From: Eledone cirrhosa
Taxonomy: Eukaryota
Length of the DNA: 64,000 nt
Direction: 5' to 3'
NCBI GenBank assembly: GCA_964016885.1
Contig: OZ024743.1
Coordinates: 192,696,001 to 192,760,000 of the forward strand
Part shown: one piece after another, positions 2,869-55,542 of the stretch
How positions within the stretch are numbered: the stretch's first letter is position 1
Layout of the letters: every line of letters starts with the position of its first letter
Made by a program: the position numbers and the translations under genes
Notes under the pieces: model-generated
Seen by the model: the letters and a program-made list of their open reading frames with translations, nothing else
The model's database searches: none
Told to the model about the DNA's origin: nothing

Positions 2869-3560
2869 AGATACGCCACGTACAGAAATTTCCTCACCCA
2901 TTTTTCCCGAGTTGTTTATTTGAATTCCATCGTTTTGTTTTTTTTAAATTGCCAATAGTTTTGAAAGTATTGGACAATTTTATTTTGTATGTTTGAAGCA
3001 GATGTTGATATTTTTTCTGTCTCATTTTAGTATGTGTGCTGTTGTATCTTCATTTTACATCGTACCTTTAATTCATAGGGCCAGGTTTATCACATATATC
3101 ACTCTCGTTCAGTATGTGAATTAAAATATATAAATACATAAATGTGGAATATTCAGCCACTTATACGTAAATTCACGAGTTGTTCGTTCAGTTGATCAAA
3201 CAATAGAATTCGTATCGCCGAAACCGACGGAAGATCCATCGTCATTCTACAATCTTCTGTACTTGCTTCCTTGCTGTTATTTTCTGGCTAAAGCCAGCAT
3301 GACTGACTGCATTCGCTGTCTCACCATTTTGCAGTGGGCTTTGGTGGTTTTATTTCCGCCAGTCGTTTATCTGGTACTTTTCTCAGACCCGCGAAGACTA
3401 GGCTTATTTAGAGGCGGCCTTTAATCGCATTGTCGTAGCTACATCACTGGGTTGTGAGAGTTTTCCTGGGAGCCACCAATACTCCATCACCCCTAGTAGT
3501 TTACTACTGTTGGTCCGAGGTTGCTTTTTATCCGATAGGTGCCCGCTTATATCTCAACTA

Positions 3561-3804
3561 TGGGCATGTGGTTAGAATGTCTCAGGAAAGAACCGCTGGA
3601 CAGATTTTACGAACAAATCCAACCACCAGGAGACCCAGAGGTAGACCCCGAGCAAGATGGTTGGACAACATCCATGAGCTTGGCTGGCCTCGCTTGGGGA
3701 TCCAGCAGGATCAGTTGGAGAGGGTGGCCTCTGACAGGACCTCTAGAAGGAGTGTTTGAGGACTCTGCCCGAAGAAGAAGAAGAAGAAGAAGAAGAAGAA
3801 GAAG

Positions 3805-3833
<29 letters not shown>
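3561..3833 (+). mobile_element. RTE-clade LINE 3' fragment with (GAA)n tail
   Basis: GHVVRM..RRPRGRPRARWLD..ASDR, typical of an RTE C-terminus, followed by a long GAA run. Confidence 0.8.
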
Positions 3834-3835
<2 letters not shown>

Positions 3836-4194
3836 CAGCATGTCATAGGGTAACCAATTTAGCTCTTTGAATTATGGATATATCCCATCCACAGTTTCCG
3901 ACTACCAAATCTCACTCACAAGACCCGAGTCATCTCTAGGCTTTTGTAGGAAAACACCTGGCCAGCATTACATGTAGAGGGATCCAGCCCTGGACATCAT
4001 GACTACGAAGCGAACTCATTAACCACTCGCCTGTGCCTTATTTACACACCCTCAGAGACTCATGCATACACACGCACACTCGTGCTATATGTGTGTATGT
4101 GTAAAGATTCATAGTCCTTATGTTCAACATAACAGTTTAATATGTATCTATGTAAACATACATATTCAATTTCATGTTGTTATTGTATAATATA

Positions 4195-4490
4195 GGAGCG
4201 AATTGGGAGAGTCATTAGAACGTCTGATAGAGTGTTTTGGCGGGATTCGTTCTGGCTCTAAACTGTTTGAGTTCAAATCCCATCGCAGTTAACTTTTCCT
4301 TTAATCCTTTTGAGGTCGATAAAAAAAGTGCCAGTCTCGTAATGGGTTGATTCTTCCTCTATATCTGGAATAAATCTGCTGTACTCAGGCCTGGAGAGTG
4401 ATAGACACCGCCTGGCTTAAAAGTGCCACAGAAACGCCGTATGTCAATACAGCGCCCCTACGATTCCATCAGGAGTTACGGGACCATACC
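4195..4490 (+). mobile_element. tRNA-derived SINE (family A head) plus a second 3' module
   Basis: GAGTTCAAATCCC B-box and GGTCGATAAA..AGT(G/A)CCAG core. The same two-part layout recurs at about 5515-5820, 10050-10425 and 21890-22215. Confidence 0.65.
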
Positions 4491-4803
4491 AATTAATAAT
4501 ATCAGGATTATATAATGCATTTTTACCCAAACGTTTGGAACCTAAACTTATTTGTACAGCTATGAAGTGCGAAAAAAAAAAAAAAAAAAAAAAAAGATTT
4601 TTTTTTACATTTTATATCAACATAATCGACATTCGGAAATTTACCTCAGCAAATTTTCATAAAGAAATATGCATTATTAAGAAAGTTATAAGTCGGTGGC
4701 GTGGCAGCACTACAATGTGTGTGTGTGTGTGTGTACGAGTACGTAATTATGTATATATGTACGTACGCACATATGTATCTAGGTATGTATACATGTATGT
4801 ATG

Positions 4804-4944
4804 CAGGGACGTCTTAACAGCATTATAGTCCCCCGGGCAAAGCAGAGCACTGGGGCCCCTACCTACACAACCACACACAGGAATAAAAATACAAATGGGT
4901 CCCCGGGCAACTGCCCAGCGTGCCCATGCGTTAAGACGGCCCTG
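4804..4944. mobile_element. hAT-type MITE (141 bp)
   Basis: TIRs CAGGGACGTCTTAAC / GTTAAGACGGCCCTG with 8-bp TSD TATGTATG on both sides. Confidence 0.85.
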
Positions 4945-6503
4945 TATGTATGCATGTGTGTGCGCGGTGACATGGAAATTAGCCGCTTCACTAAACTGCA
5001 TTTATGCCAAAATAATGGTTGCTGATTTAGGCACAAGTCCAACAATTTGCAGAGAGAGAAAAATCAAATAAATCGACCTCAGTCATTTCTGGTACTTTAT
5101 TTTATACCACCGTAAGGATGAAAGGCAACACTAACCTCAGCTGTATTTGAACACGGAACTTAAACACACTTGGACACATATTTACATATATACAGACACA
5201 AAAAGAAAAAAAATAACCCAGAGGCATTTACATACATTTACGGGAATACGTACTTTTACGCACTCACACGCTAATGTCCATGTCTGCCGTTAGCATCCAC
5301 ACACGCATTCATACACATATATCCACACATACAAACACACACACGCACACACAGACAATTGATGTTGCTTACACAGCTGTGGTTGTGAAAGAAATCACAA
5401 TCTACCCAGTTGTATAAAAATTACTTGGGACACATTTTTGACAAATTCCACCCAGAATCGGATAAGATTCCAATCATTCTAGGTGTGTCACTATGCCTGT
5501 AGTTTTGTTAAGGCAGCGAATTTGGCTGAGTCGTTAGGGCGTCATATTACCAGCTTCGGTGCTTTTTTTTCTCGGCTGTCTGCGCCAATGTCAAATATAT
5601 TTTACCGAGGTCGATAAATAAAGTGCCAATCCAATACAGAGATCTATTCTTCTTTCGTCTCTCTTTAATACTTTCTCTTGTTTTTCTCTCTCTCTTTCTC
5701 TAGAAAAAATCGGCTCTGTTTAGTCATGAAGAGAAATACGTTCCACCAGATTTAAAAGGCCCAAGACATGTCGGGTCTCAGGACGGCGTCCCTACGACTC
5801 TTTCAGGAGTTAAGGGCCCTTTTTCCTTCCTAGTTCTGTTGACTTGGTGAATGTAATATTGTTGCCGTTGCTGAGCCTGCAGTCACCTCTAATGGAAGAG
5901 ACTAATGACGAAAACCGTTACCTGTGTATTGAGCACTAGTTCTACAATGTGTGTCCTATTCTCCCAAATAAAATAATTTCATCTTATAGGTTAGTAAACT
6001 GACAAACCCAGCTTTTGCCTCATCTTGTTCTGACCCAGTAAGAAAATGAGTATGTCTGCATTTTCCACTACAGTCCACAGTCCACATTCATCCACGCCAA
6101 ATCATGTTACAAGTCCACCAACCCGCTCCACCTCTCTGGATATTTCGACAATGCTGCTGTGTGTCGAAGATCTTTATCGGTGTATTTATTGATCGTAGGA
6201 AGTTATATACATGCATACATAGTCCCGTAACTCCCGAGGAAGTCGTTGGGACGCCATATTGACATACACCGTTTCTAGGGCATTAAAGAAAAGAACCTGG
6301 TGGAGCCCATCTCCTCTCCAGGTCTGATCACAGTAGATTTCTTCCAGAATAGCCTAGAAAGTCTGGGTGAGAGAATGGAAGTTAGAAAAGAATATACACA
6401 CACAGACACACTCGATTTCATTGTTCTGTAAAAAGTTCAATGGAAGTAAGATTCGAAAAAGAAAAACCATTCCAGGGGTCACTTATGCAAGAATATTACA
6501 GAA

Positions 6504-6507
<4 letters not shown>

Positions 6508-6588
<81 letters not shown>

Positions 6589-6603
6589 CATATATATATA
6601 TAC

Positions 6604-6666
<63 letters not shown>

Positions 6667-6667
6667 C

Positions 6668-6744
<77 letters not shown>

Positions 6745-6805
6745 CATATATATGCATATATATATATATATATATACACATATATATATATATATATATA
6801 TGTAC

Positions 6806-6898
<93 letters not shown>

Positions 6899-7020
6899 TA
6901 TACATATATATGCATATATATATATATATAGTACACATATATATATATATATATATATATGTACATATATATACATATATATATATACATATATACATAT
7001 AAATACATATATATATATAC

Positions 7021-7075
<55 letters not shown>
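6508..7075. repeat. Long (TA)n/(TACA) microsatellite
   Basis: About 570 bp of TA with CA interruptions. Confidence 0.97.
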
Positions 7076-7077
<2 letters not shown>

Positions 7078-7184
7078 AACAAGTATGACCCCGACGGCAG
7101 AGTCCAAGCCGTTTCGACGGGCTAATTCTGGAATTAACGTCGAAACGGCTTGAGCTCTGTCGTCGGGGTCATACTTGTTCCTAT
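7073..7184. repeat. Inverted repeat with 47-bp arms; inverted duplication of a hammerhead 3' half
   Basis: Arms 7073-7119 and 7138-7184 differ at 3 positions. The right arm reads CGTC-GAAA-CGG-CTTGAGCT-CTG-TC. Confidence 0.9.
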
Positions 7185-7313
7185 TACCCACTCTACTGCC
7201 CTAAGTATTGAGTACTTTGGTGCGTTATGGTCCATCTGGTTCCTTACACCATTTCATCGTTATATATATATATATATTTCGTTCTGAAATTTGACCCTCC
7301 CAAAGTATAACAA

Positions 7314-7353
<40 letters not shown>

Positions 7354-7731
7354 ATTGAGCTCTCCCCAACCAACCCAGTAATATTTGCGAGAAGCGAGAA
7401 ATAGGTAAGAACAAACAAGCCGAAGAGAAAAACCCTCTACGTAGTCGCTCGACATATTAGAAATACCAGTTAAATCTCCCTGATATCAACTCATCCTACC
7501 ATCTTAAACAAAAAACTTGAAGGGTACATTAGCTAATGGATTCATGAACATACTGGATATACGAATGTTGAGGCATTCAAAGCTGCTTGAACACGTTTTG
7601 ATCATAGCTTTGTCTACACGATCACGGCTTACCTGGGGCTAAACAACAAGTCCAACGCAGTAAGTAAATGAAAACAAAACGTTTGGGCAAGGCAAGCCGA
7701 ATAGATTTGATGCAAGCAGTAAACTAATACA

Positions 7732-10559: not shown

Positions 10560-10804
10560 GAGCATGCGAAATGAGTCTGGTGAATTCGGCACCAGTCTAG
10601 AACCAAGGGTATCGGAACGCTAACCATTTCACGACGTGTGCCGGCGGCGCTTTATTGCCACTACCATCCGAGGGGGTGGACAGGGTACTTTTTATTGTTT
10701 TCACCAGCATTACCACTTTACAAAATGTGTTGGATACATTTATCATGGTGCCAACACTACTACATTTCGACACTAGAGCGCTCGCTGTGTCCTCAGCCAG
10801 TCAG

Positions 10805-23298: not shown

Positions 23299-26200
23299 CT
23301 ACAGGATGGTATACAGAGAAGGCCCATTTACACGAGCCATTCTCGCCACTATCACCCACCTTTCATAAAACTGCCTGTGGCCAAGCACCTCTCTCTCCAT
23401 TCTTATCCTTCTTCCGAAGTGATATCGGAAGAAGTAGACCAGACTATGGCCAGAGAGGAAGTTGCCTGACCTCAGACCTTTCAATCGTGTCCACCAAACA
23501 ACCTCTTTCAACATGGCTATTACGCACAGAAAAACCGCCTTTGCTTCCTTTGTGAAGAGGGGAGGCGGTTTGATTGTCATCACGGACTCGGCGGTCAATT
23601 TAATCGGCGCCACCCGCGACAGCAGTTGTTCGGCGTAGCCCCACAGATCAGCCACGCCAGGACATTGCACCAATGCGTGCGCCACGGTTTCTTCGTGACG
23701 CACGCATCTAGGGCAAATCTTTTTTGAGGGATCCCTGCCCGGGCGCCCGTGTCTGTAGAGCCTCTCTCGAACGGGTAGAGCCCCCCGGTAGCACTGCCAG
23801 GCCAGTGACTTCTGGAAGTTGTCCATTGGTCCTGGGCCGAAAGTCCTACCGAACAGGCTGGCCAGTTCGTCTTCTTCCATGTCCAGCGACTCTCCAAGGG
23901 TGTCATCGCCCCTGCTAGCCACCAGCCCTCTATAGAATGATGAGGTGGATTCTCCACCGATGGCCCGGCCCGCTTGCCAGAGAGCCCTGAGCGCCTGAGC
24001 ACACTCAGTGTGCCAGTCTCCCAGTTTTCCGGATCTTTGCTTGACCCAGGACTGTAGCTCGGTGAGTGAGACGAGTCTCGGAAAGGCTCGTTTCACGAAC
24101 GGAGCCCACACCGGTTGACCAGTGAGGAATACCTGTAGGTGTCGTAGCCTTAATGCGTGCCTACGCATCATCAACCACGGCATCCCCAGCCCTCCTTTCG
24201 AAGGTTGTTGGCAGCAGATGGATCTTCTCACCATAGGAGGACGCTTCTTCCAAAGAAATTGGAAGAGCATGCGTTCCATGGTGGTGAGTGTTTCCTTAGG
24301 GCAAGGCACGACAGTCAGGCGGTAGTAAGTGACGGACGCTATGTAAATGTTCGCCACCTCCGCCCGGCCTTTTAGGGACAGCTTACACTTGGCCCATTTC
24401 TGGGTTAGTGCAAACACCTTGTTCGTAACCTCGTTCCAGTTCTTTTCCACCTGGAGGTCCGGTCCAAACCAGACCCCAAGCAACTTTACCGGGCCCTCCG
24501 TCCAGTGTCCGACGACACCGTCAGGAGGCATCGGTTTGCCTCTCCACGTTCCGAGTTGCAGCCCGATGGATTTTTCCCGGTTCAGTTTCGCTCCTGACAA
24601 CCTTTCGTACTCCTCCAGTAAGGTACCGATCGCCTCGATCTCCGAGTCGGTTGATACCATTACTGTTACGTCATCGGCGTAGGCCGACACCGCTTTGCTC
24701 AATCCTGGTTCCAGGGGGATACCCTGCAACAACTCCAACTTCCTCAGTAAAGGCTCGAGAGTCAATACGTACAGAAGGGAGGAGAGAGGGCACCCCTGTC
24801 GAATGGATCGTGTGATTTCGAACGGCTTCGAAAGGTAGCCGTTCACCTTGATCCTAGAACAGATGTGGTTGCTATGTAGGGCAGTGATCCAGCCTCTGAA
24901 AACAGGACCGAACCCAGCCGCCGCTAGCACCGCATCCAGGTAACCATGGTCGACCCTATCGAAGGCCTTAGACTGATCCAAGTTGATCAGGGCCCCACCG
25001 AAGCCGGGTTTGTTGCCAACCCTCTCTATGATGTATCGCATGAGGTGGAGGTTATCGTGAATGGACCTGGATGGGATAGCACATGTCTGCGCATCTCCCA
25101 CCAGGCCACCCACGACAAGCGCCAACCTCTTTGCTAACACCTTGGCCAAAATCTTTAACTCTGTGTTTAGCAGGGTTATGGGCCGAAAATTATTTATACT
25201 ATCCCCCTTGTTCTCGTCCTTCCTCACCAGCGTGACTACGCCCTTGGCTACAGAACAAGGAATTCTCCCGTTCTGCTGCCAATTGCAGTAGACCGCTTCG
25301 AGGAGTTCGGAGAAGAAGACCGGCATTGCTAAATAAAGTTCGTAAGGTATACCATCGAGACCTGGAGATTTGCGTCTGCTGCATTGGCTCAGCGCATCTC
25401 CGATCTCATCAGCCGAGATTGGTCCCTCGCAGGACTCTGCCTCTTTGTTCGAGAGACGCGGCAGGCCGTCGAGGTATGGACCGAAATCCACGCCCCGGCC
25501 CGGACCCTCGCCTCCCCCGAACAATCGGGCAAAGTGCTTTTGAAAGGCCTCGCACATCTGCTTAGGCTCCCGGATCACTCGTCCATCTTCGTCTTGCAAC
25601 GACCGGATGGTGGATCGATTTCCACTTTTAGCTTCTGTCACGCGGGCCCATCCAACGGCTTTGGCCCCCTCATTACCTAGAGCACGTATTTTACTTCGAA
25701 TGACGCAGCCTTCATGCTTTGCATCGAAAAACTGGTTCAAGGCCGTCCTCGATGCCAGCACTCTGGCCACATCTTCGCTCTTGATTGCCTCTTCTAATTT
25801 ACCTGTTAATTCTTTCTCGTTTCTATTCCTATTGGCAGCTAACATCTTGCTATAACTTATTGATTCTGTTCTAATCTCTCTTTTGAGAGATGCCCACCAT
25901 CGGTTGTTGACGATTGCACCCGTCAACCTCTCCTTAACTAATCTGCTAATCCGGTTTCTGTAAGTCTCTTTTGCCGGTAAAGACAAATTAAGTTTCCAGT
26001 AACCGGGACCCTGCCTATGTGTTTTCTCGAGATTGACCACGCAGGTCACTAATTTGTGATCCGTGTAGCCAACCGTGCGCATTTCTGGACAGCTTAATAT
26101 GTCCCTATCCTTACTTCTAACTAAGAATCTATCTAAGTACGATCTAGATTGACCACTGTGGTTTCTCCAAGTCCAGGTAGGCACAGTTGGAAAATCTAGT

Positions 26201-26736
26201 CGATATCTATCGACCAAGTTAAAACGGTCGAGTAACCCCTTGAGGCTGTTACGCCCCCCTCTATTAGGACATGCTCCTGCATAGTCCCAACGTGCATCCA
26301 GGATGTCATTCCAATCCCCCGCTAGAAGCAGGGAACGCGACGTTCCCAGAAAAGTCTCCAAACGCTGGAAGAAGTCGGGCCGTTCAGCTCCGAAAGGGGA
26401 GTAGACGGCGACCAGTCTCAAGGCCGCACTTTCACTACTGCCAACGTCTAGCACCAACAAACGACCCTCCGGGTCCGAGTGCACAACCTGTACGGCAAGA
26501 CCCAGGTGTTTTTGCAGCAGCACGACAACCCCACCCCCACCTCCAGGTTGACAGAGAGATGCATGAACCTCAAAGTCATCGAAGGTGGGGGCCAGCTGCC
26601 GCATGACGCTGATTCGAGTCTCACAGATAACCATTACATTTATACTACATGACCTGAGGTCATTTAGAAGCTTTGCTTGCTTCCAAGTTGAGCCCAGGCC
26701 ACGTGCATTCAAACATCCTACTCTTAACACATCCAT
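23299..26736 (-). CDS. LINE ORF2: APE endonuclease, reverse transcriptase, C-terminal zinc finger (1145 aa, uninterrupted)
   Basis: LNARGL, ICET, GDWN, SYLDRFLV, TDH; KSPGLDG, FRPITLLN, DQSKAFDRV, IRQGCPLS, AYADD, LLGVWF; CPRC..ETVAHALVQC. Confidence 0.96.
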   Translation of the reverse strand: MDVLRVGCLNARGLGSTWKQAKLLNDLRSCSINVMVICETRISVMRQLAPTFDDFEVHASLCQPGGGGGVVVLLQKHLGLAVQVVHSDPEGRLLVLDVGSSESAALRLVAVYSPFGAERPDFFQRLETFLGTSRSLLLAGDWNDILDARWDYAGACPNRGGRNSLKGLLDRFNLVDRYRLDFPTVPTWTWRNHSGQSRSYLDRFLVRSKDRDILSCPEMRTVGYTDHKLVTCVVNLEKTHRQGPGYWKLNLSLPAKETYRNRISRLVKERLTGAIVNNRWWASLKREIRTESISYSKMLAANRNRNEKELTGKLEEAIKSEDVARVLASRTALNQFFDAKHEGCVIRSKIRALGNEGAKAVGWARVTEAKSGNRSTIRSLQDEDGRVIREPKQMCEAFQKHFARLFGGGEGPGRGVDFGPYLDGLPRLSNKEAESCEGPISADEIGDALSQCSRRKSPGLDGIPYELYLAMPVFFSELLEAVYCNWQQNGRIPCSVAKGVVTLVRKDENKGDSINNFRPITLLNTELKILAKVLAKRLALVVGGLVGDAQTCAIPSRSIHDNLHLMRYIIERVGNKPGFGGALINLDQSKAFDRVDHGYLDAVLAAAGFGPVFRGWITALHSNHICSRIKVNGYLSKPFEITRSIRQGCPLSSLLYVLTLEPLLRKLELLQGIPLEPGLSKAVSAYADDVTVMVSTDSEIEAIGTLLEEYERLSGAKLNREKSIGLQLGTWRGKPMPPDGVVGHWTEGPVKLLGVWFGPDLQVEKNWNEVTNKVFALTQKWAKCKLSLKGRAEVANIYIASVTYYRLTVVPCPKETLTTMERMLFQFLWKKRPPMVRRSICCQQPSKGGLGMPWLMMRRHALRLRHLQVFLTGQPVWAPFVKRAFPRLVSLTELQSWVKQRSGKLGDWHTECAQALRALWQAGRAIGGESTSSFYRGLVASRGDDTLGESLDMEEDELASLFGRTFGPGPMDNFQKSLAWQCYRGALPVRERLYRHGRPGRDPSKKICPRCVRHEETVAHALVQCPGVADLWGYAEQLLSRVAPIKLTAESVMTIKPPPLFTKEAKAVFLCVIAMLKEVVWWTRLKGLRSGNFLSGHSLVYFFRYHFGRRIRMEREVLGHRQFYERWVIVARMARVNGPSLYTIL

Positions 26737-26769
26737 GTGGGCGGCAGAGCCAAAGGAGAGTGTAGAGAC

Positions 26770-28671
26770 CTACCTTTCCGCTTCCCGGGGTTCGGGTTGC
26801 ACGACTTCCATGGGGTCGGGGGTGTTGGGTGAAGGGGTGTCTTGTGGTGGTGTGGGGTCGTCAGTGTGTGGTGGGGTTGGGGTGTTTGGAGTTGTGTTGG
26901 GGAGGGGAAGGGGAGGGGGAAAGCTTTTTAGTAGGACGCGGTTTATGGGTTTGACAGAGGGTGGTCCTACGTCCTCCTTAAAATCCTTTTTTAGTTTTTG
27001 GTAGAGGTTCATTGGGATTTTTATTAGTTTTAAATGTGGGTGGTTTTCTGACGAAACAAAGTTTACACCTTCGGTTTGTACCGAAGGATTATTGTATATG
27101 AGTTCATTTAATTTATTATTGTTTCTGTTGATGTAAGTATAGTGTAATGTCTTTTTTTCCGATGGTGTGAGTGTTTCGAAGAGGGGAGGGGCAGGTTTGG
27201 TTTTGTTTGTTGCTGGAGGGGTGTTTTCTGTTTTGTTAGATTGTGTTGCGATTTGGGTGGGGGTTGTTTGTCCTTGTGTGTTTTGCACATGTTTTCTTTT
27301 TTTCCTTTTAATCTGTCTGAAGGACTCCGTTTCTTCCTCCGAATTCGTTGGGTTATCTTCAGTGTTGGAGGGAAGAGGTATATTTGCTGGTAATGTTTCC
27401 GTGTTGGTTTTCTTTGTGGGGGAGATGGATGTCACTATGTTAGACTGTGTTGTGTGTTGTGTCTGCGGTGGTTGTGTTGTTTTATTGAGTGAGAGGTTGG
27501 GTGGGCCTGTATTTTGTTTTGGGGTAATGTGTTGTGACTGTTTGTGTTGTGGTGGTGTTGTGGTGTTACTGAGGGGCGGGTTGGGTGGGACTGAGTTTTG
27601 TTGTTTGTTTATCTGTTGTGGTGGTGGTGGTGGAGCTGGTGTTGGTAGCAGGGTTTTCTTTTTGTTGAGTTGGGGACAAGCGGCCTTCAGGTGCCCTCTG
27701 CCTGCACAGATATGGCAGGACGGCCTTCTCCCCTCCACGCTAATGTTTATATACCCGTGGTCCTCTAATAGGATTCTGTCGGGTATTTGGGCGATGCGTT
27801 CAGGCTTCATTTGTACTACCAGCTCTATACCTGTTCCACTGAACGCATTGCCTGTGGTTTTCCCAATGGAAATCACGTTGTCATTCACTGGATCGATGAA
27901 GCCAGCTATGAGCCAGCAGTAGTCCACATCTGGCATCATTGCATCCAGCCATATGCGTTGAGTTTTTTTTCCCATATAAGATGGATAAAAGGTGAAATTT
28001 TTCGAACGAATCGGTGACAAAGCACATTTTTTTGCCGCCGATTCGTTCTTCATGATAATTGCTAGGCTTCCATACAGTCTGTCTTTTCTTATGAAAGTTG
28101 TTTCATTCAGTACTTCTGTGAGTACTGTTTTGATATCTGCTTGAGAAGGCTGTTCAGGTTTTTTTGTACTGTTGTTGATGGTCCGAAACTTGACCGTTCG
28201 GCTTTCAATGTCTTTCGTGAATTCTTGAGGCATTTTTACCAATAAAATACCATTCTCACCTTCACTTATGTATTGTTTTGCGTCCGTGATCCTTCGTACC
28301 ACATCTGAAATGTTTTCCGCTATATAAGTCAAAGATTTCTTTGTTTTCTGTGCAAATGAAATCTTGTCGTCTGCTTTGTTTTCTGATATGATGTTATTTT
28401 CAACTGTTATTTTTTTGTTTGTTGTGTCTTTGTTTGTGTTATTAGTATTGTCATGCAATTTTTCAAATTTTTTTTTTTCGTTGTTGGAATCCAAGTCCAG
28501 ATTTATGTTTTCGTCATTTAATTTTTTCTCCGCAGATTCGTCCGTTTTTATTTTCATTTTTCCTTCCTTCTCTATGACGTTAGTTGGGAAGGAAGGGAGG
28601 ACTAAAGCGTGCGAGCTTACAACTCTTACCGCTGTCCCCCCACCACTATTTTCGTTCGCTGCGTTTAACAT
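26770..28671 (-). CDS. LINE ORF1: nucleic-acid-binding protein with CCHC knuckle (633 aa, uninterrupted)
   Basis: CHICAGRGHLKAAC zinc knuckle, Pro/Gln/Thr-rich tail, KRKKRK basic patch; lies directly upstream of ORF2. Confidence 0.88.
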   Translation of the reverse strand: MLNAANENSGGGTAVRVVSSHALVLPSFPTNVIEKEGKMKIKTDESAEKKLNDENINLDLDSNNEKKKFEKLHDNTNNTNKDTTNKKITVENNIISENKADDKISFAQKTKKSLTYIAENISDVVRRITDAKQYISEGENGILLVKMPQEFTKDIESRTVKFRTINNSTKKPEQPSQADIKTVLTEVLNETTFIRKDRLYGSLAIIMKNESAAKKCALSPIRSKNFTFYPSYMGKKTQRIWLDAMMPDVDYCWLIAGFIDPVNDNVISIGKTTGNAFSGTGIELVVQMKPERIAQIPDRILLEDHGYINISVEGRRPSCHICAGRGHLKAACPQLNKKKTLLPTPAPPPPPQQINKQQNSVPPNPPLSNTTTPPQHKQSQHITPKQNTGPPNLSLNKTTQPPQTQHTTQSNIVTSISPTKKTNTETLPANIPLPSNTEDNPTNSEEETESFRQIKRKKRKHVQNTQGQTTPTQIATQSNKTENTPPATNKTKPAPPLFETLTPSEKKTLHYTYINRNNNKLNELIYNNPSVQTEGVNFVSSENHPHLKLIKIPMNLYQKLKKDFKEDVGPPSVKPINRVLLKSFPPPLPLPNTTPNTPTPPHTDDPTPPQDTPSPNTPDPMEVVQPEPREAER

Positions 28672-28900
28672 TTCTGTTAGACGATTGAAATTTTTTACAC
28701 AAAATTTTTTAAAACAGGTTTTTCACCTCTAGGAGGGGTAAAGATGAGCTGACCCACCGCCTGACAGTTCAGACGGAGGGTCAAGCTACACAATTGTATC
28801 AAAATTAAGTTTGAACTCACAAAATTTCCTCAATAAATTTGAACAAAACTTCTGTGCGAAGTGAATGACATCCACACTGTAGAACAGACGACAGCTAGCT

Positions 28901-29970: not shown

Positions 29971-30014
29971 TACCACTGATGATGTCACAGATGTGTGACG
30001 AAAGAACTTTGATA
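29971..30014 (+). ncRNA. Minimal hammerhead motif, partly decayed
   Basis: TACCA-CTGATGA-T-GTCACA-GATG-TGTGAC-GAAA-GAAC-TT-TGATA. Perfect 6-bp stem II; weak stems I and III. Confidence 0.6.
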
Positions 30015-32182: not shown

Positions 32183-32690
32183 TTAAATTATGTGGCAAAA
32201 GGTTCTATCAGGAGTGGAGACCTTACAGTCGTAGACTATGTTTTTGGTAAGGCATTTCCCAGCCATGGGGCAGGTGGCGGTGCTTCTGCAGTTACATTTT
32301 TTGCTATCGACCTGGGTAGTTCCAGATGGACGACGATACCTTTGGGGTCGGGTCTCAGTTCCTGTCTGCTCTATGGGTAAATTCCCTGGGGTTGGGGAGA
32401 CACGACTCGCCTCACGTGTATGAGTCAGTTCCTCAATAGAGTTGCCATTGTTCCTGCCATGCCTAATTCTCTCATGGGCTGTCCTAAGTCTACTATAATT
32501 CATCTTAGCTATATTCTGAGCTATGTTACTAGTTGTGGAGTAGGACAGCTTGGTGGTATTTCTATTGAATATTTTATAATATCTGTGCGATCTAGGGAAG
32601 CATTTGTCTAAGGCCCTAAAGAAAAGCTTAGCTATACTAGTGGTCAGGCCAGTGGGGTAAGGGGGATTATACCACAGGACTTTTCTGGTT
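32183..32690 (-). pseudogene. PLE linker and GIY-YIG start, frameshifted
   Basis: WYNPP motif, Cys motif and IVY, homologous to 882-2018. Confidence 0.8.
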
Positions 32691-32706
32691 CGATGCCTCT
32701 TATTCT

Positions 32707-32915
<209 letters not shown>

Positions 32916-33180
32916 ATATACTTATTTATATCTGTATTTTTAACCGTTAGTCAATCAATGATAAACATTGATTGTCAGGTAAATTAACTATGGAGATATA
33001 AAAGATACAGAACCAAAAACCGATCCAAACCAAAATGTGAGTGTGTTTTATTATTATTTCTGGCAATATTATAACAATATGACTCTCCCCAAATATAACA
33101 ATATTTGTTTCAACACACGATTTCATATCAAAAACCTTGCAAAATAAATATATATATATATATATCATTACCACAAAAGA

Positions 33181-39412: not shown

Positions 39413-42400
39413 TCGGTCCAAACTGAAGGGCCAAACTTTATAACTGCTGTGGGACTACCTCATTTAAAAATGATAAAAGTCCCAATGCACTTGTACAAAA
39501 CACTGAAAATAAATTTCACGGAGGACGTGCCCCCCCCCCCCCCCCCTGCGCCAAACCAATCAACCGCGTCCTCCTAAAAAATTTCACACACACACACACA
39601 CACCCACCCAGACACCCACTCAACCACAAACACGCCAACCCCACAACACACCGATGCCCCTTCACTTCCACAAACCACCACCCCACCCAACAACCCATCC
39701 CCAACCAGCATGGAAATTGAGCGGCCCGTTTCCCGGGACGCAGAGAGGTAAGTGCCTTTTCTCTTTACCACCAACATGGCTGTGCTAAGAGTAGGGTGTC
39801 TAAATGCGCGTGGCCTGGGCTCGTCTTGGAAGCAAGCAATGCTTCTAAATGACCTCAGGTCACGATCTATAAATGTGATGGTTATCTGCGAGGCCCGGAT
39901 CAGCAGCATGCGACAGCTATCCCCCACCTTTGACGACTTTGAGATGCACGCATCTCTCTGTCAGCCCGGGGGTGGGGGTGGGGTTGTCGTTCTGCTGCAA
40001 AAACATATGGGCCTTGCAACACAGATAGTTCACTTGGACCCAGGGGGTCGACTGGTGGTGCTGGACCTTGGCAGTGGTGAAGGTAGAGCCTTTAGGCTGA
40101 TAGCCGCATATGCCCCTTTTGGGACAGAGCGGCCCGACTTTTTCCAGCGTCTGGAGTCTTTTCTAGGGACGTCCCGTTCCCTGCTTTTAGTGGGGGATTG
40201 GAATGGTATCCTGGATGCACGTTGGGACTATGCAGGGGCATGTCCCGATAGAGAGGGGTGCAACAGCCTCAAGGGGTTACTCGGCCGATTTGACCTGGCC
40301 GATAGATTTCGACTAGATTTTCCGACGGTGCCAACCTGGTCTTGGTCAAATCGCAGCGGATCATCTAGATCGTACCTAGATAGATTTTTAGTTAGAAATA
40401 AGGACAGGGACTTTTTAAGTTGTCCAGAAATGCTCATGGTTGGCTATTCAGACCACAAGTTGGTGACCTGCATGGTCAACCTTGATGGAACGCATAGACA
40501 GGGCCCCGGTTACTGGAAGCTCAACTTGTCCTTGCCGGCAAGTAGAGCCTACAGGAATCGGATTAGTACGTTAGTTAAGGAACGGTTGACTGGAGCGATC
40601 GTCAACAGCAGGTGGTGAGTATCTCTAAAGAGAGAGATTAGAGTAGTCTCGATAGAATTTAGTAAGGTTCTAGCTGCGGATAGGAATAGGAAGGAAAGGG
40701 AGCTAATAGATAGAGTAGAAGAGGCAATTAGAAGCGGCGACGTGGCCAGAGTGCTAGCGTCGAGAACGGCTTTGAGCCAGTTTTTCGACGCGAAGCACGA
40801 AGGCTGCGTTGTCCGAAGTAAAATACGTGCTCTAGGGAGCGAGGGGACCAAAGCTGTTAGCTGGGCCCGCGTGACAGAGGCCAACAGTGGAACTAAATCC
40901 ACCATCCGGTCTTTGCGAGACCTGGATGGACGGGCGATTCTTGAACCTAAGCAGATGTGTGAGGCCTTTCAAAGGCACTTTGCCCGACTGTTCGGGAGGG
41001 GCGGGGAGCCGGTTGGGAACGTGGACTTCGGTCCATACCTCGACGGCCTGCCGCGCCTCTCGGACAGGGAGGCGAAGTCCTGCGAGGAGCCGATTTCGGC
41101 CGCTGAGATAGAGGACGTGCTGAGCCAATGCGGCAAACGCAAATCCCCGGGTCTCGATGGTCTTCCTTACGAATTATATCTAGCTATGCCGGACTTGTTC
41201 CCCGATCTCCTCGAGGCGGTCTACTGCAACTGGCAACAGAACGGGAGAATTCCCTGTACTGTGACCAAGGGCGTAGTCACGCTAGTGAGGAAGGACGAGA
41301 ACAAGGGGGACGAAATAAGTAACTTCAGGCCCATAACTCTGCTAAATACAGAGTTACAGATTTTGGCCAAGGTGCTAGCAAAGAGGTTGGCGCTTGTCGT
41401 GGGCAACCTGGTGGGAGATGCGCAGACATGCGCTATCCCGTCCAGGTCCATCCATGACAACCTCCACCTCATGCGATACATCATAGAGAGGGTTGGGAAC
41501 GAACCCGGCTTTGGTGGGGCTCTGATCAACTTGGATCAATCTAAGGCGTTCGATAGGGTCGACCCTGGTTACCTGGATGCGGTGCTAGCGGCGGCAGGCT
41601 TCGGACCCGTTTTCAGGGGCTGGATCACTGCTATGCACAGCAGCCGCATCTGCTCTAGGGTCAAGGTGAACGGCTACCTCTCGGAGCCGTTCAAAATCGC
41701 GCGGTCCATCCGACAAGGGTGCCCTCTCTCCTCCCTTCTGTATGTGTTGACTCTCGAGCCACTACTGCGGAAGTTGGAGTTGTTGCAGGGCATCCCTTTG
41801 GAACTGGGATTGCGGAAAGCGGTGTCGGCCTACGCCGATGACGTGACAGTAATGGTGTCGACGGCCTCCGAAATCGAGGCGGTCGGCACCTTACTGGAGG
41901 AGTACGAAAAGTTCACAGGGGCTAAGCTGAACCGGGACAAGTCGATCGGTTTGCAACTCGGCACGTGGAGGGGCAGACCGATGCCCTCCGATGGCGTCGT
42001 CGGACGCTGGACGGAGGGCCCGGTGAAGTTGCTCGGGGTCTGGTTCGGACCGGACCTCCAGGTGGAGAAAAACTGGGCGGAGGTTACGAACAGGGTGTTT
42101 GCACTGACCCAGAAGTGGGCCAGTTGCAAACTATCCCTGAAAGGTCGAGCGGAGGTGGCGAACACCTACATAGCGTCCGTCATCTACTACCGCCTGACCG
42201 TAGTGCCCTGCCCAAGGGAAACCCTCACCAAGATGGAGCGCGCGCTCTTCCAATTCCTTTGGAAGAGGCGGGCTCCTATGGTGAGGAGATCCATCTGCTG
42301 TCAACACCCTTCGAAAGGAGGGCTGGGGATGCCGTGGCTAATGATGCGTAAACACGCATTAAGGCTACGGCACCTCTACGTATTCCTCACCGGAGAACCG

Positions 42401-42773
42401 GTGTGGGCCTCGTTTGTGAGACGAACCTTTCCCAGACTCGTCTCACTCACCGAGCTGCAATCCTGGGTCAAGCAAAGACCGAGAAAACTGAGTGTGCTCC
42501 TGAGGAAAAGGGTTGCACACTTTTTTCGGGGGTGTGTGCGACCCCCCAAGGCGCCTCCTCTCTATTGAGGATTTTGTTATAAATTTTATTTTTTGTTATA
42601 TTTTATAACAAAATCCTCTATTGAGGATTTTGTTATAATTCTATTTTTTGTTATATTTTATTTTATTTTTATATATTGTTATTGCCTCCTCCCTATTGAG
42701 GACGCCTTGTTTTGTAAACTCCCCCCATTGTACTTGTCCCACTTTTGATGCCCTTGTGGCAAATAAAAGAAAC
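39413..42773 (+). mobile_element. Tx1-like LINE subfamily B, 5'-truncated within ORF1 and internally rearranged
   Basis: Starts just after (TATC)n at about 39375-39408. ORF1 tail, then ORF2 from ATG 39776; jumps to the 3' UTR at about 42491; ends AATAAAAGAAAC then (TCTA)n. Confidence 0.9.
39776..42490 (+). pseudogene. ORF2 (APE plus RT) with a premature stop
   Basis: Colinear with 23299-26736; TGG>TGA at 40616-40618; YADD intact. Confidence 0.9.
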
Positions 42774-42819
42774 ACATCTATCTATCTATCTACCTACCCA
42801 TCTATCTATATATCTACCT

Positions 42820-43810
42820 AACTGGGCGCCTGGCACACTGAGTGTGCCCAGGCGCTCACCGCCCTCTGGCAGGAGGATCCGGTTATCAGTGGAGACTCCA
42901 CCGCAACATTCTATAGAGGGCTGGTACGCAGCAGGTGCGACGATACCCTCGGAGAAGCCCTAGACATGGAGGAGGACGAACTGGCCGGCCTGTTCGGTAG
43001 GACATTCAGCCCGGGACCTATGGACAACTTCCAGAAGTCCCTGGCCTGGCAGTGCTACCGAGGAGCCTTACCCGTTCGAGAAAGGCTCTACAGACACGGG
43101 CGCCCGGGTAGGGACCCCGCCAAAAAGATCTGTCCCAGATGCGTGTGCGACGAGGAAACCGTTGCACACGCATTGGTACACTGCTCGGGCGTAGCCGATC
43201 TGTGGGGCTATGTCGAACAACTGCTGTCAAGGGTGGGACCGATCCGGTTGACCACCGAGTCTATTGTAATGATCAAGCCGCCTCCCCCCTTCAAAGATGA
43301 AGCAGAGGCGGTGTTTCTGTGCGTAATAGCCATGGCGAAAGAGGTTGTATGGTGGACGCGTCTGAAAGGACTGAGGTCAGGCACCTTTCTCTCTGGCCAA
43401 CAACTGGTCCGTTTCTTCCGATATCATTTCGGAAGAAGGATCAGGATGGAGAGAGAGGTGCTGCACCCCAGTCGTTTTTATGAAAGGTGGGTGAAAGTGG
43501 CGAGAATGGCCCGTGTGAATGGGCCTTCTCTTTACATGAGCCTGTAGGTGGAAAAGAGGAAGGAACGAGGGAGCACCCCCTCTCTGTGCTCCTGAGGAAA
43601 AGGGTTGCACACTTTTTTCGGGGGTGTGTGCGACCCCCCAAGGCGCCTCCTCTCTATTGAGGATTTTGTTATAAATTTTATTTTTTGTTATATCTTATTT
43701 TATTTTTATATTTTGTTATTGCCTCCTCCTTATTGAGGACGCCTTTTTGTGTAAACTCCCCCCATTGTACTTGTCCCACTTTTGATGCCCTAGTGGCAAA
43801 TAAAAGAAAC
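42820..43810 (+). mobile_element. Tx1-like subfamily B 3' segment
   Basis: Resumes ORF2 where the upstream copy broke off; has the C-terminal zinc finger, 3' UTR and (TCTA)n tail. Confidence 0.9.
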
Positions 43811-43837
43811 ATATCTATTTATCTATCTATCTATCTA

Positions 43838-43972
43838 CTAGCCCTCTATAGAATGTTGCGGTGGAGTCTCCACTGATAACCGGATCCGCCTGCCTGAGGG
43901 CGGTGAGCGCCTGGGCACACTCAGTGTGCCAGGCGCCCAGTTTTCTCGGTCTTTGCTTGACCCAGGATTGCA
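43838..43972 (-). mobile_element. Inverted Tx1-like ORF2 fragment
   Basis: Reverse complement of about 42456-42490 joined to about 42820-42922. Confidence 0.8.
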
Positions 43973-43994
43973 CTTTTCTATAGAGGATTGCACT

Positions 43995-44893
43995 ATTCTA
44001 TAGAGGGCTGGTACGCAGCAGGTGCGACGATGCCCTAGGAGAAGCCCTAGACATGGAGGAGGACGAACTGGCCAGCCTGTTCGGTAGGACATTCAGCCCG
44101 GGACCTATGGACAACTTCCAGAAGTCCCTGGCCTGGCAGTGCTACCGAGGGGCTTTACCCGTTCGAGAAAGGCTCTACAGACACGGGCGCCCGGGTAGGG
44201 ACCCCGCCAAAAAGATCTGTCACAGATGCGTGTGCGACGAGGAAACCGTTGCACACGCATTGGTACACTGCTCGGGCGTAGCCGATCTGTGGGGCTATGT
44301 CGAACAACTGCTGTCAAGGGTGGGACCGATCCGGCTGACCACCGAGTCTATTGTAATGATCAAGCCGCCTCCCCCCTTCAAAGATGAAGCAGAGGCGGTG
44401 TTTCTGTGCGTAATAGCCATGGCGAAAGAGGTTGTATGGTGGACGCGTCTGAAAGGACTGAGGTCAGGCACCTTTCTCTCTGGCCAACAACTGGTCCGTT
44501 TCTTCCGATATCATTTCGGAAGAAGGATCAGGATGGAGAGAGAGGTGCTGCACCCCAGTCGTTTTTATGAAAGGTGGGTGAAAGTGGCGAGAATGGCCCG
44601 TGTGAATGGGCCTTCTCTTTACATGAGCCTGTAGGTGGAAAAGAGGAAGGAACGAGGGAGCACCCCCTCTCTGTGCTCCTGAGGAAAAGGGTTGCACACT
44701 TTTTTCGGGGGTGTGTGCGACCCCCCAAGGCGCCTCTCTATTGAGGATTTTGTTATAATTCTATTTTTTGTTATATTTTATTTTATTTTTATATATTGTT
44801 ATTGCCTCCTCCCTATTGAGGACGCCTTGTTTTGTAAACTCCCCCCATTGTACTTGTCCCACTTTTGATGCCCTTGTGGCAAATAAAAGAAAC
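43995..44893 (+). mobile_element. Second Tx1-like subfamily B 3' segment
   Basis: Near-identical to 42908-43810; followed by (TCTA)n at 44895-44981. Confidence 0.9.
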
Positions 44894-44894
44894 A

Positions 44895-44940
<46 letters not shown>

Positions 44941-44981
44941 CATTCCAACCTATCTATCTATCTATCTATCTATCTACCTAT

Positions 44982-45530
44982 CTGCTGTCGCGGGTGGCGC
45001 CGATTCGATTGACCGCCGAGTCCGTGATGACAATCAAGCCGCCTCCCCTCTTCACAAAGGAAGCAAAGGCGGTTTTTCTGTGCGTAATAGCCATGTTGAA
45101 AGAGGTTGTTTGGTGGACACGATTGAAAGGTCTGAGGTCAGGCAACTTCCTCTCTGGCCATAGTCTGGTCTACTTCTTCCGATATCACTTCGGAAGAAGG
45201 ATAAGAATGGAGAGAGAGGTGCTTGGCCACAGGCAGTTTTATGAAAGGTGGGTGATAGTGGCGAGAATGGCTCGTGTAAATGGGCCTTCTCTGTATACCA
45301 TCCTGTAGGTAAAGAAGTGAAGGAGAGGGGAGCACCTTCTCCATGTGCTCCCCGGGCAAAGGATTGCACACTTTTTCGGGGGTGTGTGCAACCCCCATCA
45401 CGTCCCCTCCCTTTTGAAGTTGTTTTTGATTATTTTCATTTTATACCCTTTTTACTCGGTTTTATGTAAACTCCCCCTTTGTATTTGTCCCTTCTTTTTA
45501 TGCCTTTATGGTAAATAAAGAAATCTATCT
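44982..45530 (+). mobile_element. Tx1-like subfamily A 5'-truncated copy
   Basis: Near-identical reverse complement of about 23084-23625. Begins in (TATC)n and ends AATAAAGAAATCTATCT. Confidence 0.92.
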
Positions 45531-48698: not shown

Positions 48699-49342
48699 CT
48701 TGCTTAAACCTCCCATTCCCTACCTGGCCAAAACTAGGTCTGGTTATATGAAATAAAACCACCATTTTAAAGGGTTATAAGAACTATATGCTTGCTTAAA
48801 CCTCCCATTCCCTACCTGGCCAAAACTAGATCTGGTTATATGAAATAAAACCACCATTTTAAAGGGTTATAAGAACTATATGCTTGCTTAAACCTCCCAT
48901 TCCCTACCTGGCCAAAACTAGGTCTGGTTATATGAAATAAAACCACCATTTTAAAGGGTTATAAGAACTATATGCTTGCTTAAACCTCCCATTCCCTACC
49001 TGGCCAAAACTAGGTCTGGTTATATGAAATAAAACCCCCATTTTAAAGGGTTATAAGAACTATATGCTTGCTTAAACCTCCCATTCCCTACCTGGCCAAA
49101 ACTAGGTCTGGTTATATGAAATAAAACCACCATTTTAAAGGGTTATAAGAACTATATGCTTGCTTAAACTTCCCATTCCCTACCTGGCCAAAACTAGGTC
49201 TGGTTATATGAAATAAAACCACCATTTTAAAGGGTTATAAGAACTATATGCTTGCTTAAACCTCCCATTTCCTACCTGGCCAAAACTAGGTCTGGTTATA
49301 TGAAATAAAACCACCATTTTAAAGGGTTATAAGAACTATATG
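48699..49342. repeat. 92-bp tandem repeat, 7 near-identical units
   Basis: Units start at 48699, 48791, 48883, 48975, 49067, 49159 and 49251. Confidence 0.96.
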
Positions 49343-49831: not shown

Positions 49832-49997
49832 TTGAAAATATATATAAAGGATATAGTAGAAAAGACAAGATGGTAACAGCTGAAATGTATTTCACAGTAG
49901 GCATATTTGGGCTGATCAAAGGCTAAAAATTAAACTTTAATAATGATTTCATCTTCATAGAATGGATCATAGCATAATTAGCAAATAAATCACATAC

Positions 49998-51225
49998 CTT
50001 TTTCTGTGACTTCCAAGTAGACGGCATCTTTGATGGTAGAGGAGGTGCTGGTGGTGGTGGAGGGGGAGGTGGTGGAGGAGGAGGTGGTGGTGGTACAGAA
50101 GGTGGTACTTGTGATGGGAGTGGAGGTGGAGGTGGGATTGGTGGTGAGTGTAAAGGACTTGTAGGAGATGGAGACTTTGGTTCGTGCAATGTAGCGACGG
50201 CTTTTGGTTGGCTTTCATAAAAATCAGCTTCCGATGGTTCGACATAGGAATTGGTACGGACTATTGGTTGTATCTCTCCACACTGTATAACAGTAGGTGA
50301 AGCATATCCTTGGCTATATCCATCTTCTGGATGAGGAGCAAATTGTGTGCCGCCTATATTTGGTGATAATGGACTGTAGTAGGTGTTTGGACATTGTGGA
50401 GTAACATAATCTGGTGTTTTAGCTGAACTAGTAATGCTGACAGGTTTTGCCCAATAGAGATTCTCTTCAGGCCGTTCCCTAATGCCAGCTGAGACAGGTT
50501 TCTGGAGAACCGGGCTTGTTTGTCCATCATAATCATTACTAGGATTTACATAAGATGGTGTAGTTGTAGCATATGCCTGAGCATTATAAACAGGACTAGT
50601 CACTGGTGATTTCTGGAGATTTGAATGACTGTCTGTAAAATAGGAGGCACTTTGTGCCGCTGGGGTTGGTGTGAAAGCACTTGACTGATAACCTAGATTA
50701 GGTTTCACTTCAGCTACACGAGTATTATAAGCTGCATAATCATTCGACTGGTTATAGTGAGGCGACATAGGAGACGCAGGTGACGGTTTGTATTGTGGAG
50801 GAACAGGGTATGACTCATTACAAACATCATTATTCATGAAGTCGGTTGTTCCTTGATTAACTGAATTGATGTTATTGTAGTGAGGTCGGCTCTCTGTATA
50901 GGCATCCGCGCTGTGATGGTAGGAATCAGCTGGTTCCGAGTAGTACTGACGCGGTGTTGGAGTTACTGGTGAAATATATCCATAGCTGCTTGGTTGGGTT
51001 GACGGATCACTAATTGAGCGAAAACCAGAAGAATAATCGAAAGGAGATTGGTATTGGTTATTGATGTTATTGTTGTACATCTGTTGTTGTTGTGTTGTTG
51101 ATGTAACAGAAGGTGACATAATTTGCTCATTTTGACGTGGAGGTGGGTTCTTATAAACTGGGTAAACTGGACTCTGGTCATAATTAGGTGGGCTGTTGAG
51201 TGGTGAAAACACCTCTGCAGCTCCC
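49998..51225 (-). CDS. Large internal coding exon (1228 nt) of an unidentified Pro/Ser/Tyr-rich protein
   Basis: Open frame of about 409 codons with varied codon usage. Acceptor: CTGACTAAT branch point, polypyrimidine tract, CAG at 51226-51228. Donor AAG/GTATGT at 49997. Polyproline run near the exon end. Confidence 0.85.
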
Positions 51226-51422
51226 CTGGAAAAGAGAAAGAAAGATAGAAAAAAATTAGTCAGAGAAAGTATAAATATTTTACAATAGATTTAATTCAGT
51301 AAAGTAAATGGAACATCATTAGTTTCTGTAATGAATTTTCCAGTTATTTCATCAATGGAATGGACTACTTGTTAAATTAACATGGAAGTGGTTGAGTATC
51401 CTACAGACATGTGTACCCTTAA

Positions 51423-53820: not shown

Positions 53821-55511
53821 TTTCTTTATTAGCCACAAGGGCGCACAAGAAAAGGGGACAATACAATACAAAGACATGCCAGGGATTTTACATACAGTCG
53901 TGTAAAAAATATAAAAACAAACAATTACAACAATCGAAATCCCCAATAGGGGGGAGGCGCCACAAATGGGTTGTTTAATACCCCGTCGATAGAACAACCC
54001 TCAACTTCAGGAGCTTGTTGTGCAAGTGCGCCTTTCTTCCTTTTGCTCTCTTCTTTAACCTACAGGTTTATAAACAGAGAAGGCCAAATCACTCGGGCCA
54101 TTTTCGCTTCATTCACCCACCTTTCAGTAAATTTATTGGGGTGCAGTGCCTCTCTCTCCACCCTGATTCTCCTTCTAAAGTGATACTTAAAGAAGGGAAT
54201 CAACTGTTGTCCGGAGAGAAAGGCATCTGTCCTCAGTCCTCTTAATCTCGTCCATCATATAACTTCTTTCACCATAGCCACCGTACAGAGGAAAACCGCC
54301 TCTCTTTCGTTTTTGAAAGAGGCTGGCGGTTTGATCCTTACTATGGACTCGAAAGTCAACTGGATTTGTCCCATACGCGACAGCAGTTGTTCTGCATAGT
54401 TCCACAGGTCGGTTATGCCCGGGCAGTGTACAATTGCGTGCAGGACTGTTTCAATGTCCTGCGCGCATCTTGGAAACGTCCTCTTGGAAGGATCCCTGCC
54501 GGGGCGTCCGTGCCTGTAGATCTTGTTACGAACCGGTAGAGCTCCTCGGTAGCACTGCCAGGCCAGGGACCTCTGAAAGTTGTCCATAGGTGCCGGGCGG
54601 AAAGTCCTACCAAACAGACTGGTGAGCTCATCGTCTTCGACGCCCAGAGTCTCTCCGAGCACGTCGTCGCCCTTGTAACATACAATCCCTCTATAGAATG
54701 TCGAAGTGGAGTCTCCACTGATTGCTGCGCCCGCTTGCCAGATGACTGTGAGCGCCTGAGCGCATTCAATGTGCCAGGCGCCCATCGTTTTCGGTCTTTT
54801 CTTGACCCAGGACTGCAGCTCCGTCAGCGAGACGAGCTGTGGGAAAGCCTGTCTCACAAACGGTGCCCACACCGGTTGGGGGTCGGTGAGGAATACCTGG
54901 AGATGCCGCAGCCTCAGTGCATGTTTGCGCATCATCAGCCACGGCATTCCCAGCCCTCCGTTGGAAGGGTGCTGACAGCAAACGGATCTCCTCACCAGTG
55001 GAGCCTGCTTCTTCCACAGAAACTGGAAGAGCATGCGTTCCATCTTGGCGAGGTGTTCACGGGGACAAGGAACGACAGTCAAGCGGTAGTAGATGACGGA
55101 CGCTATGAAAGTGTTCGCCACCTCCGATCGACCTTTCAAGGACAGTTTGCACTCTGCCCACTTCTGGGTGAGTGCAAAACCTTGGCCCTGACCTCGTTCC
55201 AGTTTTTCTCCACCTGGAGGTCTGGACCGAACCAGACCCCAAGCAATTTCACCGGTCCGTCCGTCCAGCGTCCAACGACGCTGTCGGACGTCATCGGTTT
55301 GCCTCTCCACGTGCCGAGTTGCAAACCGACAGACTTGTCCGGGTTTAGTTTTGCTCCCGTCAGCGTTTCGTATTCTTTCAGTAAGTTGCCGATCACCCCG
55401 ATTTCCGAGGTGCTCGACACCATTACCGTCACGTTGTCGGCATAAGCCGACGCCGCTTTGCGCAGTCTCGGTTCTAGAGGGATGCCCTGCAACAGCTCCA
55501 ATTTCCGCAGT
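53821..55511 (-). mobile_element. Tx1-like subfamily C, 5'-truncated and frameshifted
   Basis: ORF2 homology from LRKMELLQGIP to the C-terminus; 3' end AATAAAGAAA. Flanks are TAGATATA and TAGATAGATATA. Confidence 0.9.
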
Positions 55512-55542
55512 AGATAGATATAACTTTATTATTACAAAAATT

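Follow-up and report, generated by a model that had tools for sequence, protein, structure and literature searches.

The palindrome at positions 7073 to 7184 of the window (the whole 64,000-nucleotide stretch of Eledone cirrhosa DNA analysed here, which lies on contig C4 of a 3.0 Gb genome) is an ordinary, decayed copy of an abundant repeat. As judged from sequence, the palindrome family is a (TA)n-targeting, EN+ Penelope-like retrotransposon with the protein motifs of the Hydra clade. Its inserts were probably formed by reverse transcription primed from each of the two cut target strands, with a single capped sense RNA as template and both cDNAs running off the 5' end of that RNA. The parts of the window locus are given below, where family positions are numbered from the A of a YAGTC site (+1).

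6508..7075, no strand: (TA)n tract on the left, belonging to the target microsatellite
7073..7131, minus strand: short arm, covering about +4 to +61 of the family; outer end at putative start site A (GTTCC, then TA)
7120..7137, no strand: centre, where the arms meet with a 1-nt overlap at 7131
7131..7262, plus strand: long arm, family positions about +7 to +140; outer end at putative start site B
7142..7169, plus strand: hammerhead 3' half (GAAA, 7142-7145; stem III, 7146-7149 with 7159-7162; predicted cleavage triplet, 7162-7164; stem I 3' strand, 7165-7169)
7185..7262, plus strand: one-sided tail of 78 bp between putative start sites A and B, continuing into the element body in full copies
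7261..7278, no strand: (TA)n tract, right part of the target

An earlier note, made from the letters of the window, had described the palindrome as having 47-bp arms with three differences, two G-U pairs and one A-C mismatch on the plus strand, and a place between (TA)n tracts; all of this was borne out by comparison of the arms (7073-7119 and 7138-7184, with an 18-nt spacer) and by the tracts found on either side. The 196-nt palindrome region folds at -102 kcal/mol (z = -13.6), and none of 200 shuffles was equally stable. Both arms begin inside loop II of the hammerhead motif, just downstream of +1 (at about +4 and +7), and the copy lacks the extra G described below and shows small decay changes. 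Comparison with intact copies places a hammerhead 3' half on the minus strand of the short arm as well as on the plus strand, where stem III includes one G-U pair and its loop holds a 6-nt palindrome. The hammerhead 5' half is absent, with the inverted arm in its place, and the window copy is therefore predicted to be unable to cleave alone. The three arm differences look like ordinary decay (the family mean is 1.9 differences per 46 nt over 145 pairs); the locus is a decayed insert of the type that pairs sites A and B, its decay lies within the family range, no target-site duplication is readable at it and nothing links it to a host role or function. Rfam gave no match at the gathering score across the whole window, and no hammerhead family among 32 weak matches within 6900-7500.

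The family is very large. The arm 19-mer has 57,359 exact matches genome-wide, there are 16,081 places where two arms stand head-to-head within 60 nt, and 5,952 intact hammerhead 5' halves belong to the family. These exact patterns favour young copies, most samples were drawn from the start of one contig, and the sampling 19-mer is blind to arms starting after +11. A search with the 190-bp unit yielded 3,820 candidates, the best 40 of which were scored and were all palindromic, as would be expected if the unit were non-autonomous, for instance a MITE, and were copied with its palindrome already in place. We give next to no credence to that explanation: the palindromes are made anew, with no master copy behind them, because the 130 inserts show 83 different centres, the most frequent of which (15 copies) is found with seven sets of alleles and with the tail on one side in some copies and on the other side in others. 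Moreover, the same sequence forms the pLTRs of elements that code for reverse transcriptase (RT), and no target duplication is readable. The earlier note had named MITE-like homologs, always palindromic and with target-site duplications, as the case against its own reading; non-palindromic copies do exist. Membership of the non-LTR retrozymes was considered and rejected: these are tandem, non-coding 150-400 nt monomers, each with a whole hammerhead (bioRxiv 10.64898/2026.07.22.740005, in the part covered), and the family unit is coding and 3.1-3.5 kb long. As regards ADAR marks, A-to-G accounts for 2 of the 27 changes common to both arms in 145 pairs, a count that draws on only five A positions and on search patterns that select against edited copies.

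Non-palindromic copies lead to partial tandems. At one locus, L161, an inverted truncated copy is followed by a partial copy in tandem and then by a 3,118-bp unit with an open frame of 719 codons (3280-5436), starting at +232. Within this single frame, an RT (YRDD at residue 348) is joined to a C-terminal GIY-YIG domain (YIGLT at 606); it has 2,054 homologues, mostly unnamed, the best of which are 39-54% identical. A Pfam scan of this type of frame returned no family, such that the assignment rests on motifs and homology, and a PDB search with it found no match. Self-maps of L161 and a second locus, L178, show the same plan: a partial tandem forming the pLTRs, an inverted 5'-truncated copy and a one-sided tail. 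The placing of the arms, as a hammerhead 3' half, in a Penelope-like pLTR, as the earlier note had it, is supported. Among 30 tail-to-body junctions, 16 follow an intact pLTR, seven start near +1 and seven are without a scorable core.

The Hydra clade is defined by DKT in place of DKG, a CxCX5C linker, CxxC plus CxH flanking the E and N, and (TA)n targeting (PMC8557442, section 11). The L161 protein has DKT at residue 117, CxCX5C at 572, CxxC at 670 and CxH at 698, and no CCHH as judged by eye; at residue 37, RWR stands at the place matching the RWK of Hydra, a conservative change. Family insertions, likewise, sit in (TA)n. Hydra-1_Obim (Craig et al. 2021), an example from the clade in the sections of PMC8557442 covered, shares the single frame of RT with C-terminal GIY-YIG and, with its clade, the DKT, CxCX5C, CxxC and CxH motifs, the (TA)n targets and the hammerhead motif. 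Its protein is alike across the RT by eye, and the palindrome family was judged to be distinct from it. The two also differ in that the family unit is 3.1-3.5 kb long with a 3' UTR of about 1.1 kb, whereas Hydra is given as under 3 kb; and the family has a mostly U3/A8 core and a loop II of 37-39 nt, whereas Hydra-1_Obim has a canonical core and an 8-nt loop, and no pLTR is annotated for it in those sections. A coral Hydra element, the entry before Hydra-1_Obim in the supplement of PMC8557442, has by eye a 9-nt word identical to site B soon after its hammerhead, a possible conserved start signal.

Three further Penelope-like features were seen. A second, divergent Hydra-like element is nested in an insertion of the palindrome family (L100, 2518-4149, minus strand). 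Two loci (G000:C1:91476608-91487252 and C1:437200358-437210968) each hold four head-to-tail units spaced about 3.54 kb apart, an arrangement that would fit a template that is circular or was jumped repeatedly. In the window itself, 882-2108 and 32183-32950 (both on the minus strand) are fragments of other Penelope-like frames, also with Hydra-type motifs.

Intact copies present, in order, stem I, a 7-nt core half, stem II, a loop of 37-39 nt, GAAA, stem III, UC and the return strand of stem I. The consensus fold of 19 such copies is a three-way junction, with stems of five, six and five pairs around the core; the copies are close, and none of the 16 stem pairs shows compensatory, two-sided changes. 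Single-sequence folds of two intact copies (z of -0.56 and -1.29) are no better than those of shuffles. Among the first 100 of the 5,952 intact halves, read by eye, core positions 3 and 8 are U3/A8 in 74, C3/A8 in 23, U3/G8 in two, G3/A8 in one and C3/G8 in none; position 7 is G in 68, T in 14, A in 13 and C in five, and position 4 is U in all 100. We consider the intact copies to carry a type I hammerhead motif and a predicted ribozyme, about a quarter of them with a C3/A8 mismatch. The 5' half that the earlier note expected in non-palindromic copies is thus present, although in a different form, as CUGANGA occurs in 0 of 100 and most are U3/A8. The latter is a known variant of hammerheads in Penelope-like elements (PLEs), including Cercyon of Schistosoma (Cervera and de la Pena 2014, PMC4209133, in part). 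The same note was right about the GAAA, placed its stem III (CGG) in a register 3 nt off (the stem is formed by CGGC with GYCG) and took the first GUC for the cleavage triplet, where we predict the second. In searches for CUGANGA itself, directly upstream of the 3' half there were nine matches (seven in an unrelated LINE, one by chance and one a junction artefact), and within 38 nt there were 45 heterogeneous matches, which we read as flank or junction sequence and whose 30 loci were taken only into pooled counts. Two minimal hammerhead-like motifs (CUGANGA...GAAA) occur elsewhere in the window, at 29976-30003 (plus strand) and about 10765-10796 (minus strand), in unrelated repeats.

In the part of PMC4209133 covered, the minimal type I hammerheads of PLEs resemble the family motif in their type I order, short helix I, G10.1-C11.1 pair, palindromic loop 3, U3-A8 swap and occurrence as motif pairs on opposite strands. 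The family motif differs from them in its helix III of 4-5 bp, the 2x1 internal loop in helix II, the quarter of copies with C3/A8 and the long loop II containing the predicted start site.

The positions at which arms stop were read from the first 100 listed matches of the arm 19-mer on contig C1, where four calls at +1 rest on a tolerated mismatch. Eighteen arms continue past this point into upstream pLTR sequence; the other 82 end somewhere from -7 to +11, and 78 of these have an inverted partner. The positions are counted from the A of the YAGTC word, inside loop II, and the 5' strand of stem II is reached by none of the 82 truncated arms. Inversion breakpoints do cluster, as the earlier note had proposed; however, they do so inside loop II at the predicted transcription start, not in stem II. 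That note had the cDNA fold at stem II, so that the ribozyme hairpin would set the inversion point. The palindrome does start adjoining stem II, with an inverted copy standing in for the 5' half; but such a fold predicts that loop II is kept between the arms, and this was seen whole in none of 146 inserts (and in none of the first 50 listed centres). Since, in addition, no truncated arm extends to the 5' strand of stem II, we reject fold-back at stem II for the bulk of the copies, and rate it as very improbable overall. It also requires the long-tailed arm to be the template, whereas the arm reaching farther 5' is the short one in 15 inserts, the long one in 16 and neither in 10 (n = 41).

The base preceding +1 is G in 5,050 arms and A in 827, whereas in intact copies it is T in 26, C in 15 and G in none (n = 41); at control junctions at +2, G is found in 15 of 100, by eye. 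The partner arm could have templated the extra base at 13 of 30 extra-G loci and 3 of 15 extra-A loci, and could not have done so at the remaining 17 and 12, respectively. The YAGTC word at +1 is initiator-like, and an AT-rich word at -29 to -31 makes a good TATA-like match in two of the four subfamilies only. In full-length L1 insertions, an extra G is read as a mark of the cap (PMC11702581, in the part covered). Given that the arms stop at an initiator-like site with the extra G expected of a cap, we infer that +1 is likely to be the capped RNA start of the element. Matches of 1-7 native bases upstream of +1, seen in 20 of the 82 truncated arms, may reflect chance microhomology or minor start sites.

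The stop at +1 might instead be a pause by the RT, or an RNA processing site, in loop II, with two primed cDNAs but no capped start. The zone lies within a structured motif, the TATA-like word is imperfect in two subfamilies, and the sequence at +1 to +2 is, in addition, similar to a YAG splice acceptor. The excess of G, however, is specific to +1; no upstream exon is common to 30 loci, the basis on which a splice-junction origin of the G was rejected, and AG is retained in the arms. Processing by the ribozyme itself would be predicted at +41. Of 172 mixed junctions near this cut, the first 100 were counted by eye, and only 11 clear and about six ambiguous ones end there, against 16,081 palindromes; inserts with both arms starting at the cut numbered none in 0.96 Mb from 314 loci that had been selected with other patterns, a sample of low power. 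We regard a pause or processing site as unlikely, and a capped start at +1 as the better reading.

The outer ends of the arms lie at one of two sites, A near +58 and B near +138, with TA after each. In 41 of 43 unbiased inserts an arm ending at A is paired with one ending at B; the other two pair A with a partial arm, and neither A/A nor B/B was seen (P = 5e-13 against an even split). In a larger set, from which 30 loci that had been chosen because they resemble the window copy were removed, 104 of 118 are A/B, and all eight long inserts pair a B-ending arm with one ending at A or partial. The extra G occurs on the short arm in 19 cases and on the long arm in 19 (outside the match to the partner in 13 and 11, respectively), and on both arms in 4 of 146 inserts. 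Since either arm can carry the extra G, which one folded cDNA cannot give, two cDNAs are indicated. At the four most variable columns the arms of an insert differ in only 0-7% of 131 pairs, compared with 46-65% for random pairing (15 of the 146 pairs were dropped for indels, short flanks or more than eight differences). Such sharing of alleles would fit a single template, and fold-back predicts it too. At one centre, L172 (G000:C1:13301052-13301103), the arms have variants typical of different subfamilies, possibly from two RNA templates.

Passage beyond +1 seems to be decided jointly for both arms: by eye, 46 of the first 100 intact halves share a head-to-head cluster with a second intact half, in excess of the 18% that independent passage of each arm would give.

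Self-priming has been proposed in print from the junction palindromes (Arkhipova et al. 2013; PMC3846280, in part): one cDNA would pair with itself through short inverted words close to its end and so prime its own extension, and the endonuclease would trim the second arm later. The centres often show microhomology and are recurrent, and the alleles common to both arms are as this route predicts; it may account for a subset of the copies. As the general route, we hold it to be quite improbable: the farther 5' reach belongs to the short arm about as often as to the long arm, the short arm can carry a G lying outside its partner's match, a short first arm would offer no template for the 78-bp tail, and the G stands on both arms in four inserts. 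It also needs an antisense template, whereas the cap-type G points to sense.

With two primed cDNAs on a capped sense RNA as the favoured reading, the steps may be envisaged as follows. A and B would be two internal starts of reverse transcription that operate together, each serving one of the target strands, perhaps with a dimeric enzyme. Both cDNAs would run off the RNA 5' end at +1, and their two ends would be trimmed by a few bases before being joined via microhomology or short fill-ins. Copying of the same 60 bases of one RNA by two enzymes might involve strand displacement or, alternatively, two RNAs from one locus. An RNA beginning at +1 would have half a ribozyme at its 5' end and would not cut itself there; the whole motif would be transcribed only at the RNA 3' end. 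Long insertions would arise when copying passes +1, through a template jump or a tandem or circular RNA.

The closest biochemical parallel is PAc, a Poseidon element of Anolis, whose purified protein cuts and extends both strands in vitro and whose two internal starts bound the tail (Frangieh et al. 2024, PMC11167929, in the part covered); the protein is predicted to be a dimer. PAc resembles the palindrome family in its AT-rich target, extension of both strands, two internal RT starts bounding the tail, and an insertion for which ribozyme cleavage is dispensable. The same part of that paper makes no report of paired starts in one insertion, nor of run-off at a capped start inside the ribozyme.

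Twin priming offers another point of comparison. In L1, two target ends reportedly prime on one RNA, as proposed here for the family; L1 twin priming copies non-overlapping parts of the RNA, whereas both cDNAs of the family would copy the same first 60 bases, giving a palindrome. The extra G at the RNA start is a further likeness (PMC11702581, in part).

Much of the architecture of these insertions is already in print: inverted pLTRs, one-sided tails, junction palindromes, the putative TATA and Inr of pLTRs and the hypothesis of antisense self-priming all appear in PMC3846280, and a transcription start within the pLTR in PMC2377424 and section 10 of PMC8557442 (each in the parts covered). The published PLE insertions likewise have a 5' inverted copy, a tail on one arm and a palindromic junction (PMC3846280; PMC8557442, Figure 2 legend), and their pLTRs have a putative TATA and Inr, as in the family (PMC3846280). 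The family differs from them in its tail of 78-80 bp, against 30-40, and in the dominance of stubs without a body; its data favour two primed cDNAs on sense RNA, whereas the published model is self-priming on antisense RNA (PMC3846280). Our literature search, chiefly of openly available papers, found no statement that priming is paired, that PLE inversion points carry a cap mark or that transcription starts inside a hammerhead, and the mechanism proposed here is absent from the literature searched; the part of PMC13000458 covered held nothing on caps.

A more speculative scheme, which is possible but on balance doubtful, would extend this to a general PLE replication cycle. The promoter would lie inside loop II of the element's own hammerhead, and the transcript, from cap to cut, would have a terminal repeat like the retroviral R region; a dimeric enzyme would begin a cDNA on each target strand, both of them close to the RNA 5' end. 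The palindromes, 16,000 in number, would then be stranded strong-stop products, and pLTRs and partial tandems would result from a cDNA jump to the ribozyme-made 3' end.

The way in which PLEs make their inverted ends, and the RNA strand that serves as their template, are stated as open in the parts of PMC3846280 and PMC8557442 covered. If true, the reading of +1 as a capped start, with the same RNA copied from both cut strands, would show which strand is copied. The tens of thousands of copies would amount to a fossil record, to the base, of where the RNA starts, where each of the two primings takes place and how the two are paired. An in vitro test can therefore be designed directly from one intact copy. 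Additionally, if transcribed, the near-perfect hairpins, 16,000 of them, could supply dsRNA in large amounts.

The window holds several other features. A two-frame non-LTR retrotransposon (class assigned by eye) occupies 23299-28722 on the minus strand, with an open endonuclease/RT frame of 1,156 codons, and broken copies related to it lie at 39752-45308 and 54255-55586. An LTR retrotransposon with broken gag-, RT- and integrase-like frames spans 58798-61855. Finally, at 48699-49342 and 49923-51290 (minus strand), seven copies of a 92-bp unit, with 98% identity, adjoin an open Pro/Ser-rich frame of 455 codons, which may be a host exon.
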